This document shows, one piece after another, positions 18,385 through 26,589 of a DNA stretch of 64,000 nucleotides. Location: assembly GCA_048939995.1 (NCBI GenBank), contig JBHLOY010000001.1:1-64000 (forward strand), in the 5' to 3' direction. The position numbers and the translations under genes are program-made. The stretch's first letter is position 1. Each line of letters opens with the position of its first letter. The notes beneath the pieces are model-generated. The model saw only the letters and a list, made by a program, of their open reading frames with translations. It was not told where the DNA came from and made no database searches. This stretch comes from Promethearchaeota archaeon. Lineage in GTDB: Archaea; Asgardarchaeota; Lokiarchaeia; Sigyniarchaeales; SOKP01.

Positions 18385-19278
18385 GTGAGCATTATTTTTA
18401 AACAAATTAATATCAATACAATTCTATCTCCCTTAGATAAAAATAATCTTGCTAAGAAGATTGGAATTGACGTTGGTCAAAGTCTTACTAAGATTGCATT
18501 TTTAGAAAAAGAATCATTGATTTTATCAATTGGTGCAACAAAAAATAATTTCCATCAAATTATGAAACTTATTGAAACATTCAAATTGAATCTTAATCAA
18601 ATTAATTTCACTGGAGGGAAAGCTTTTGATCTTTTCAAGAAATATGAAAATAGTTATCATTGCAACTTAATTGATGAATTTGAAGCCAATGTAAAGGGAT
18701 TAGATATTACATTCAGATATAAGAGAAATAAACCCCTTCCTCCTTCTCTTATAATTACAATAGGTACAGGTACATCATTTGTTCTAAAAAATAAGACTAT
18801 TAAACATATAGGAGGTACCGCACTTGGAGGAGGCTTTTTTATGGGAATTATTAAGATTTTATTCAATATTGATGATTATCAAAAAGCAATCACACTTTCT
18901 AAAAAAGGAAATCGATATAATCTCGACTTAAGAGTTAAGGATATTTATAATGCTCAAGATGATAGAGTAGATATTTGGTTTAGAGAATTTACAGCTTCTT
19001 CTTTGGGAAAAATAGATCAAGATACTAATTTATCCTCGCTAAAAAGGGAGGATGTATTGAATTCATTAGTTTGTTTAATAGGTGAAAATATCGGTTCTTT
19101 AGCTTCCATATACGCTAAAAATTATAATATTGGAACTCTTATCTATTGTGGGGGATTTTTAATTAATAATAATCCTTTAGCAACTATTCTTAAAATGATT
19201 TGTAAAATAAATAGACAAAGACTATTAATCGTAGAAAATTCTGAATTTAATGGAGCAATAGGAGCTTTACTTTTTTAA
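18385..19278 (+). CDS. coaW: Type II pantothenate kinase (CoaW/Fumble-like)
   Basis: GIDVGQSLTK, FTGGKA, EFEANVKG, IGTGTS, GGTALGGG, DLRVKDIY, TASSLGK, GAIGAL. Confidence 0.85.
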   Translation: MSIIFKQININTILSPLDKNNLAKKIGIDVGQSLTKIAFLEKESLILSIGATKNNFHQIMKLIETFKLNLNQINFTGGKAFDLFKKYENSYHCNLIDEFEANVKGLDITFRYKRNKPLPPSLIITIGTGTSFVLKNKTIKHIGGTALGGGFFMGIIKILFNIDDYQKAITLSKKGNRYNLDLRVKDIYNAQDDRVDIWFREFTASSLGKIDQDTNLSSLKREDVLNSLVCLIGENIGSLASIYAKNYNIGTLIYCGGFLINNNPLATILKMICKINRQRLLIVENSEFNGAIGALLF

Positions 19279-19307: not shown

Positions 19308-19388
19308 TTTTGTGTGCCCATTTGGAGATCTCTATTCATCGAAATTATTATTTAAAATAATACTCTTAAAGACACTATAAATGGGCAC
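19308..19388 (-). ncRNA. Box H/ACA pseudouridylation guide RNA, predicted target 23S rRNA helix 69 (E. coli U1911 equivalent)
   Basis: 10-bp lower stem GUGCCCAUUU/AAAUGGGCAC, pocket AUAGU/CUCC, 7-bp upper stem GUCUUUA/UAGAGAU, K-turn-like GA...GAUGA, ACA 14 nt below the upper stem; pocket complements GGAG-U-N-ACUAU. Confidence 0.75.
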
Positions 19389-19482
19389 TATTAAATTGAA
19401 GAAGTTGATAAACTTAAATCTTTCTTAATGTAAATTAAAGAAGAAAAGAATCAGTTTAGAATAAAACTAAAAAGTTTTTATC

Positions 19483-20130
19483 TTATATAGTTTCTGAATG
19501 TTTTTTAAGTAAATCTTCATTAGTTTTTCCCATTTTAATCGCTAGTTCTGCTATAATTGAATCCAAATATACAAAAGCTGCGATCTCGAAATTAGTACCT
19601 TCTGGTGTAAGTAGAGCCGTATCATCGTGACGATCAACTTTATCACGTTTAGTTCTGCCTTTTAATTTAATTGTAACGTCTGATATTCTTCCCACAATTG
19701 ACTCAGGATGTGAAGTAATAGAAATAATACCATGAGGTTTCACATTATTCACATAATTCTTTAATAAGGACACAACAATCTCGGTAGTCCCTGAACCTGA
19801 TAAAATTATCAATAAATCATTCTTTGTAAGTGCTGGAATTGATGCTAAGTTTGTTACCATATAAACATCTGCTCCTAAATGTACAAGACGTGTTGCAAAG
19901 CATTGTAATATAAATGCGGATCGTCCACTAGCTAATAAAAATAATTTTCGCTTGTTAACAAGAGCGTCATATAAGTAATCTATGAATTTCTGGGTATGCA
20001 TAAAGTATTTGTTTCTTTTTAGATGGATCATGTTATCTTCAAGATTTTTCATCATTAATTCCATAGCACGGAAAAGGATTTCTTTTACTTTCCCATTCAC
20101 TTCAATTTGATTATTAGCTTTATCAGCCAT
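19483..20130 (-). CDS. hxlB: 6-phospho-3-hexuloisomerase (SIS domain)
   Basis: ASGRS, RLVHLG, SGSGTT, PEGTNFE, C-terminal KKH. Confidence 0.85.
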   Translation of the reverse strand: MADKANNQIEVNGKVKEILFRAMELMMKNLEDNMIHLKRNKYFMHTQKFIDYLYDALVNKRKLFLLASGRSAFILQCFATRLVHLGADVYMVTNLASIPALTKNDLLIILSGSGTTEIVVSLLKNYVNNVKPHGIISITSHPESIVGRISDVTIKLKGRTKRDKVDRHDDTALLTPEGTNFEIAAFVYLDSIIAELAIKMGKTNEDLLKKHSETI

Positions 20131-24622: not shown

Positions 24623-24841
24623 TTATTTGTATTTAATCGCTAGGAGTAAGTCATTCTTTGTAATTTTCTTTCTATTTGCATGCATTGTGAATTGTCTTGC
24701 TTTATCGGTCAAAGCAGTTGCACTTTTTTCAAGATGATCAATTAATAAATCAACTGCGTTTCGAGCTACTATACTTGCACCCTGTTGCTTCATTAATCGT
24801 CTGATTGGGCTCCATGCGAAAGAATGTTTCTTTTTTGCCAT
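24623..24841 (-). CDS. Archaeal histone (HMf family)
   Basis: SPIRRLMKQQGASIVARNAV...HANRKKITKNDLLLA histone fold; GGAGG SD upstream. Confidence 0.93.
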   Translation of the reverse strand: MAKKKHSFAWSPIRRLMKQQGASIVARNAVDLLIDHLEKSATALTDKARQFTMHANRKKITKNDLLLAIKYK

Positions 24842-26515: not shown

Positions 26516-26589
26516 GGGGGGGTGGTCTAGACTGGTATGATACTGGGTTCGGAACCCAGTGGTCGCGGGTTCAAATCCCGTCCCTCCCA
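26516..26589 (+). tRNA. tRNA-Pro (anticodon CGG), intronless, CCA not encoded
   Basis: Acceptor GGGGGGG/CCCTCCC + A73, D arm, anticodon arm CTGGG-TTCGGAA-CCCAG, T arm GCGGG-TTCAAAT-CCCGT. Confidence 0.95.

Follow-up and report, generated by a model that had tools for sequence, protein, structure and literature searches.

The window analysed here is a stretch of 64,000 nucleotides from a Promethearchaeota archaeon, and the element under study lies on its minus strand, downstream of an HxlB-like gene and facing a convergent pantothenate kinase-like gene. The earlier note had described at 19308-19388 a hairpin with a 10-bp basal stem, an internal pocket, a 7-bp upper stem, K-turn elements and an ACA placed 14 nt below the upper stem, and direct reading of the sequence gives precisely this layout. 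The extent has to be trimmed, since hairpin and ACA box occupy 19388-19311 (minus strand, 78 nt, AT-rich with 27% GC) and starting at 19308 adds three A. The parts of the locus, with H69 standing for helix 69 of the 23S rRNA, are the following:

19311-19388, minus strand: putative H/ACA guide RNA of 78 nt, comprising hairpin and ACA box; ends predicted, relatives conserving just that stretch
19379-19388, minus strand: lower stem, 5' strand; its uppermost one or two U would also pair with the target
19374-19378, minus strand: 5' guide strand AUAGU (UUAUAGU with two stem U); predicted partner H69 ACUAUAA, 1913-1919; identical in 69 of 71 homologues
19367-19373, minus strand: upper stem, 5' strand, 7 bp; two-sided changes in 5 of 7 pairs
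19364-19366, minus strand: non-bulged strand of the K-turn, A-G-A; final A invariant, about one homologue in five having A, U or C in place of the G
19341-19363, minus strand: apical stem-loop; invariant G-C closing pair, sequence and length freely variable
19335-19340, minus strand: bulged strand of the K-turn, GAU bulge, then GA and A; U, G and A the same in all 72 copies
19328-19334, minus strand: upper stem, 3' strand; part of the covariation analysis
19324-19327, minus strand: 3' guide strand CUCC; predicted partner H69 GGAG, 1907-1910; identical in 67 of 71 homologues
19314-19323, minus strand: lower stem, 3' strand; two-sided changes in 10 of 10 pairs
19311-19313, minus strand: ACA box, 14 nt below the upper stem
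19413-19423, minus strand: BRE/TATA-like putative promoter motif, at a fixed position upstream in relatives
19483-20130, minus strand: upstream neighbour, SIS-domain protein, HxlB-like, with a score below the NCBIfam cut-off
18385-19278, plus strand: convergent neighbour, type II pantothenate kinase-like protein, forming the context of the RNA locus

The element had been considered unannotated, and an Rfam search gives it no family, with nothing at gathering score and chance miRNA-type matches alone by E-value. The sole Rfam match within the window is a tRNA gene at 26516-26589 (plus strand), and a 72-aa ORF at 24623-24841 (minus strand) looks archaeal histone-like by eye.

The hairpin has a folding energy of -22.7 kcal/mol (z -3.87), a value equalled in 1 of 200 shuffles, the ten basal pairs having pairing probabilities of 0.93-1.0 and the 7-bp upper stem containing two G.U pairs. 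The lower stem, of 10 bp in the free RNA, would keep 8-9 bp once the target is bound, within the 7-9 bp of the class, and the GA stem is built of 10 stacked layers (7+1+2) across all the families found, as the class rule demands. The K-turn is present at the level of sequence motif, and none of the 72 copies departs from the A.G pair, the G-C pair or the bulge U; its second G, a position tolerant of change, varies in about 20%. The class rule places an ANA box 14-16 nt below the upper stem, and an ACA is found at 14 nt both here and in Baldrarchaeum. Among 71 homologues, the box is ACA in 48, ANA in 55 and not ANA in 16, and it stands at 14 nt in 49, at 13 in 16, at 15 in 4 and at 12 in 2; in family f2 it is often lost. 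Since the ACA is dispensable in vivo for a typical single hairpin (PMC7075261), these 16 boxes count less against a guide.

Published rules for productive guides comprise a 10-bp GA stem, 14-15 nt to the ANA and 10/5/9 or 10/6/9 folds (PMC4652768). The fold of this RNA is 10/5/9 when one stem pair is opened and 10/6/8 when two are opened, the GC-rich Baldrarchaeum copy being an exact 10/5/9. The pocket of the free RNA is partly closed by A13-U63 and G14-C62 (probability around 0.86), and pocket self-pairing is used as a negative criterion for candidates (PMC4652768). In duplexfold, the 5' duplex amounts to -3.7 including initiation and to about -7.8 with 4.1 removed, to be read bearing in mind that the published rule (below -6 kcal/mol; PMC4652768) is based on RNAsnoop.

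Shape alone is no proof of a guide, because a strict H/ACA descriptor run on the 3.75-Mb genome has this element as its sole match and the reversed control also gives one. What takes the element beyond chance is its conservation, its covariation and its fit to a target. As far as sequence can tell, it is confirmed as a single-hairpin archaeal box H/ACA RNA, the class to which it had been assigned from its letters, and it carries all the features of archaeal single-hairpin H/ACA guides that are testable in this way. Descriptor searches revealed no further convincing H/ACA hairpin in the host genome; a second descriptor match (G000:C28:405074-405165, minus strand) has a 7-bp basal stem and an AGA box, and its fit to 23S rRNA needs an atypical gap.

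Upstream of the RNA, AAAGA (19423-19419) and TTTAAG (19418-19413) form the TATA-like element which had been noticed before, and its position is conserved in relatives: in 63 de-duplicated upstream regions, an AA-N-TTWWW motif starts at -34 to -32 in 46 cases, no other position having more than 5. The spacer from the upstream stop codon to the RNA ranges from 22 to about 155 nt, and the fixed distance of the motif despite this variable spacer supports 19423-19413 as a putative promoter of the RNA itself. About 58 of the 72 homologues have an hxlB-like gene ahead of the RNA in the same orientation, and in four of them the RNA comes 22-23 nt past the stop codon, an arrangement that could suit a cis element of this mRNA (a terminator, a stability hairpin or an L7Ae-bound K-turn in its 3'UTR) or a barrier between convergent genes. 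Such a role is extremely improbable, given that Baldrarchaeum, G310 and others have different genes beside the RNA, that the RNA has a promoter-like motif of its own, that no terminator-like site was found at the locus, and that a cis element would not retain rRNA-complementary loops covarying with rRNA.

The distribution of the element was then considered as that of a guide RNA. In DNA searches of relatives, the hairpin and the ACA were matched and the flanks hardly at all, save in two close genomes. Of the 126 family genomes searched with a covariance model, 107 have the guide, almost always as a single copy, as in the host genome. Refined models also reach the sister families f2, f4 and f7 and, beyond the class, two further Asgard genomes, G159 (Ca. 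Baldrarchaeum yapensis) and G310. The lower stems of f2, f4 and f7 have unrelated sequences, with pocket and K-turn unchanged. Covariation across Asgard genomes, one of the checks proposed in the earlier note, was found: in 45 sequences, two-sided changes occur in 16 of 19 pairs and 94.7% of cells are paired, with slid controls at 34-53% and 0 of 500 shuffles reaching the observed level, figures which are not probabilities, as the sequences are kin and the alignment was fitted to the model. By alignment column, the pocket has an identity of 0.99, against 0.83-0.84 for the stems, 0.59 for the apical loop and 0.57 for the flanks, and an unpaired pocket more conserved than the stems is as expected for a guide. 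Two of the carriers, G044 and G055, are apparently the cultured Lokiarchaeia Promethearchaeum syntrophicum MK-D1 and Ca. Lokiarchaeum ossiferum, which would make the target prediction testable now.

A strict pattern run on 185,579 species genomes, too stringent to exclude other archaea, returned the Baldrarchaeum copy and six bacterial matches, the latter taken as chance. In lineages with a changed H69, model R3 found no orthologue in f31 (GGGAC; 22 genomes) or f13 (GGAGC; 10 genomes), a result reflecting either absence or low sensitivity, since this model favours CUC pockets and scores 112 candidates per genome; pattern matches in f31 were rejected, being near control level and having the upper stem unpaired in all those inspected. 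Two cases of additional copies were observed. In G089, a degenerate second copy (L090:5-83; G089:C152, minus strand) sits some 1.1 kb downstream from the intact copy, has altered pocket and K-turn letters and is probably a decaying local duplication; G034 has two similar copies (L097, L098) on two contigs, each after an hxlB-like gene, which are either duplicates or come from mixed strains within the bin.

The 23S and 16S rRNA genes of the host are not in its assembly, and the pairing of pocket and 23S rRNA, also proposed as a check, was run on congeners. Guide and target are both present in seven of them (G036, G025, G017, G020, G008, G026 and G009), and in these seven same-genus 23S genes H69 reads GGGAG-U-A-ACUAUAAC (in full, GGGAGUAACUAUAAC / GGGAGUAACUAUAACUCUC), including the GGAG that had been predicted from the pocket. 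CUCC with GGAG and UUAUAGU with ACUAUAA make 4+7 Watson-Crick pairs and leave U-A free, this being the bipartite complementarity around an unpaired U-N typical of the class. The 5' pairing had been proposed for AUAGU, which does pair, but it reaches 7 bp when the uppermost pairs of the lower stem open; in copies with a shorter lower stem, the 3' arm is often CUCCC and thereby pairs with GGGAG over five positions. Aligning H69 with the E. coli helix, we take the unpaired U to be the equivalent of E. coli U1911, the site originally suggested. When every U of the congener 23S and 16S rRNAs was scored, this one was the unique best, with 11 Watson-Crick pairs against 6-7.5 for the runner-up, and 3 of 300 resampled rRNAs reached 11 pairs.

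Site and GGAG stand, but the target had been likened to the eukaryotic type, with G at 1918, and this lineage has A there. A G is found at 1918 in G159 and G310, and in both the guide partner has changed from U to C (CAUAGU, UCAUAGU). As read in these genomes, the change is a covariation between separate genes, where a G.U at 1918 would have been tolerated; the two cases may represent one evolutionary event.

H69 varies across the phylum. Stem variants with compensating changes occur in f13 and f31 (GGAGC...GCUUC, GGGAC...GUCUC and GGGAA...UUCUC), and loop variants (ACUCUG and ACUGUG) in f20, f24 and f33. The H69 matches of L032 (G015), G091, G121 and one of G225, unlike those of their kin and in one case of E. 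coli type, are probable bin contamination and were set aside. In the 23S gene of G310, an insert of about 800 nt directly after helix 69 (L157:2113-2937), likely an intron, concealed H69 from the pattern search.

Predicted guide targets have often proved wrong (PMC2377435), and a true H/ACA guide could have another product: H69 1915 or 1917 via the sort of atypical pairing known in Haloferax sR-h45 (PMC7075261), or a uridine in a tRNA, an mRNA or another RNA, as the target scoring covered 23S and 16S rRNA. Searches of the host genome (G000) with Rfam HgcG or descriptors yielded neither an HgcG-type nor an alternative 1915/1917 guide, which may be diverged, unassembled or absent; a weak HgcG match overlaps a tRNA-like stretch and was discarded. 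Nevertheless, a product other than 1911 is very improbable, taking into account that the arms fit 1911 exactly and every other rRNA U scores at most 7.5, that the guide covaries with rRNA 1918, and that Baldrarchaeum has a separate HgcG-like RNA with a pocket fitting the 1915/1917 region. HgcG-like multi-hairpin H/ACA RNAs were observed, below the Rfam cut-off, at L153:1501-1769 (G159) and in L154 (G310), the arms of one hairpin fitting the 1915/1917 region of H69; that of Baldrarchaeum lies on a separate contig from its copy of the Asgard guide.

The reading we favour, with a probability of about 0.88, is that the RNA would be independently transcribed, bind L7Ae and Cbf5-Nop10-Gar1, and guide pseudouridine formation at the 1911 equivalent. 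It builds on the structure, the conservation, the complementarity, the guide-target covariation and the presence in the host genome of all four proteins, Cbf5 (with the TruB-type motif GHGGTLDP), Nop10, Gar1 and L7Ae; transcription, protein binding, catalysis and timing we infer as follows. Once transcribed from its own promoter, the hairpin RNA would have its K-turn bound by L7Ae and its lower stem and ACA bound by Cbf5, together with Nop10 and Gar1. The two pocket strands would then base-pair with the pre-23S rRNA, one on each side of the U-A with which the helix 69 loop begins, and Cbf5 would convert the unpaired 1911-equivalent U to pseudouridine, the next A also remaining unpaired. Because the guide pairs with both H69 strands, it must act before helix 69 closes, or open it.

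Pairing with both stem strands would equally suit an H/ACA-type RNP acting chiefly as a folding chaperone, which keeps H69 from closing while the large subunit is assembled and pseudouridylates little or not at all, a role that has long been a matter of speculation (PMC7991803). Members of family f2 (L124, L126-L128, L130, L137-L139, L142 and L143) have a lengthened 5' arm with up to 12 nt complementary to H69, a 3' arm with 3-4 nt and an ACA box lost or shifted, and in G044, of the same family, the 3' guide has just 3 bp and the spacing is 13 nt. The lengthening of the 5' arm to 8-12 nt in f2, the reduction of the other to 3 nt and the decay of the ACA could point to a chaperone, as could the archaeal maps, from which pseudouridine 1911 is missing: the H69 pseudouridines are 1915 and 1917 in Haloarcula, 1917 in Pyrococcus abyssi (PMC2377435), and 1917 and the yeast-2266 equivalent in Sulfolobus islandicus (PMC11077068), 1911 not being listed in any of them. 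However, the ruler distances for catalysis (an unpaired U-N, a GA stem of 10 layers and a spacing of 13-14 nt) persist throughout the phylum sample, and a chiefly chaperone function is quite improbable. For the pseudouridylation guide, the natural loss of the ACA in f2 and the shift of pairing between its arms offer a test of the published rules for guide function. The prediction of pseudouridine at the 1911 equivalent is a precise one and concerns a key bridge of the ribosome.

As a mechanism this is textbook, the new part being the family and its specific target prediction. Literature searches gave no description of Asgard H/ACA guide RNAs, and the element defines, with good support, a new, uncatalogued Asgard small RNA family of a well-known guide kind. 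Pyrococcus Pab91, Pab160 and Pab21 (10/5/9; PMC4652768, PMC2377435) share with it the lower stem, the pocket, the 10-layer GA stem and K-turn, the ANA at 14 nt and an rRNA target, whereas their target is different and the Asgard RNA is AT-rich and without Rfam sequence match. HgcG, Pab40 motif 3 and Afu4.3 (RF00064), as well as SL2 of Haloferax sR-h45, are likewise H/ACA guides for helix 69, but these RNAs are multi-hairpin and target the 1915/1917 equivalents, in contrast to a single hairpin predicted to target 1911. Identity of the locus with HgcG/Pab40 (three hairpins, 1917, Rfam score 77 bits) was rejected, as there is a single hairpin and no match here.

The consensus arms of Pyrobaculum sR204 (PyrR204, RF02802), GAGU and UCCCCGGC, would fit an H69 reading GCCGGGGG-U-A-ACUC, and sR204 may aim at the same uridine. 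Unlike the Asgard guide, with its strong lower stem, sR204 is devoid of a lower stem (PMC4652768), and membership in its family (score 71 bits) was rejected, the best copy, that of Baldrarchaeum, reaching 12.3 bits (E 8.4), far below gathering score, and having a lower stem; the host genome (G000) gave no match to PyrR204. Since sR204 may share the site, the RNA cannot be claimed as the first archaeal 1911 guide.

In bacteria, RluD makes pseudouridine 1911 in E. coli, plus 1915 and 1917, so that the 1911 product site is the same, although this enzyme is protein-only and uses no guide RNA. The E. coli H69 pseudouridines are located at 1911, 1915 and 1917, and 1911 is also modified in human (PMC2875026). 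In eukaryotes, SNORA23 probably has the same site as the Asgard guide. The numbering of the snoRNA database is presumably 10 higher than that of the pseudouridine map, its 3737 then being 3727, the 1911 equivalent. Human SNORA23 (ACA23) is listed for 28S-3737 (PMC6466398), and the human H69 pseudouridines are 3727, 3731, 3733, 3737 and 3739 in one numbering (PMC2875026). Unlike the Asgard guide, SNORA23 has two hairpins and no K-turn, is intron-encoded and binds Nhp2. It is rather unlikely that the Asgard guide is ancient and shares descent with the eukaryotic guide of the site (SNORA23 type); were it so, one guide-target pair could be traced across eukaryogenesis, and Asgard ribosomes would bear an H69 pseudouridine lacking in the mapped euryarchaeal and Sulfolobales ribosomes.
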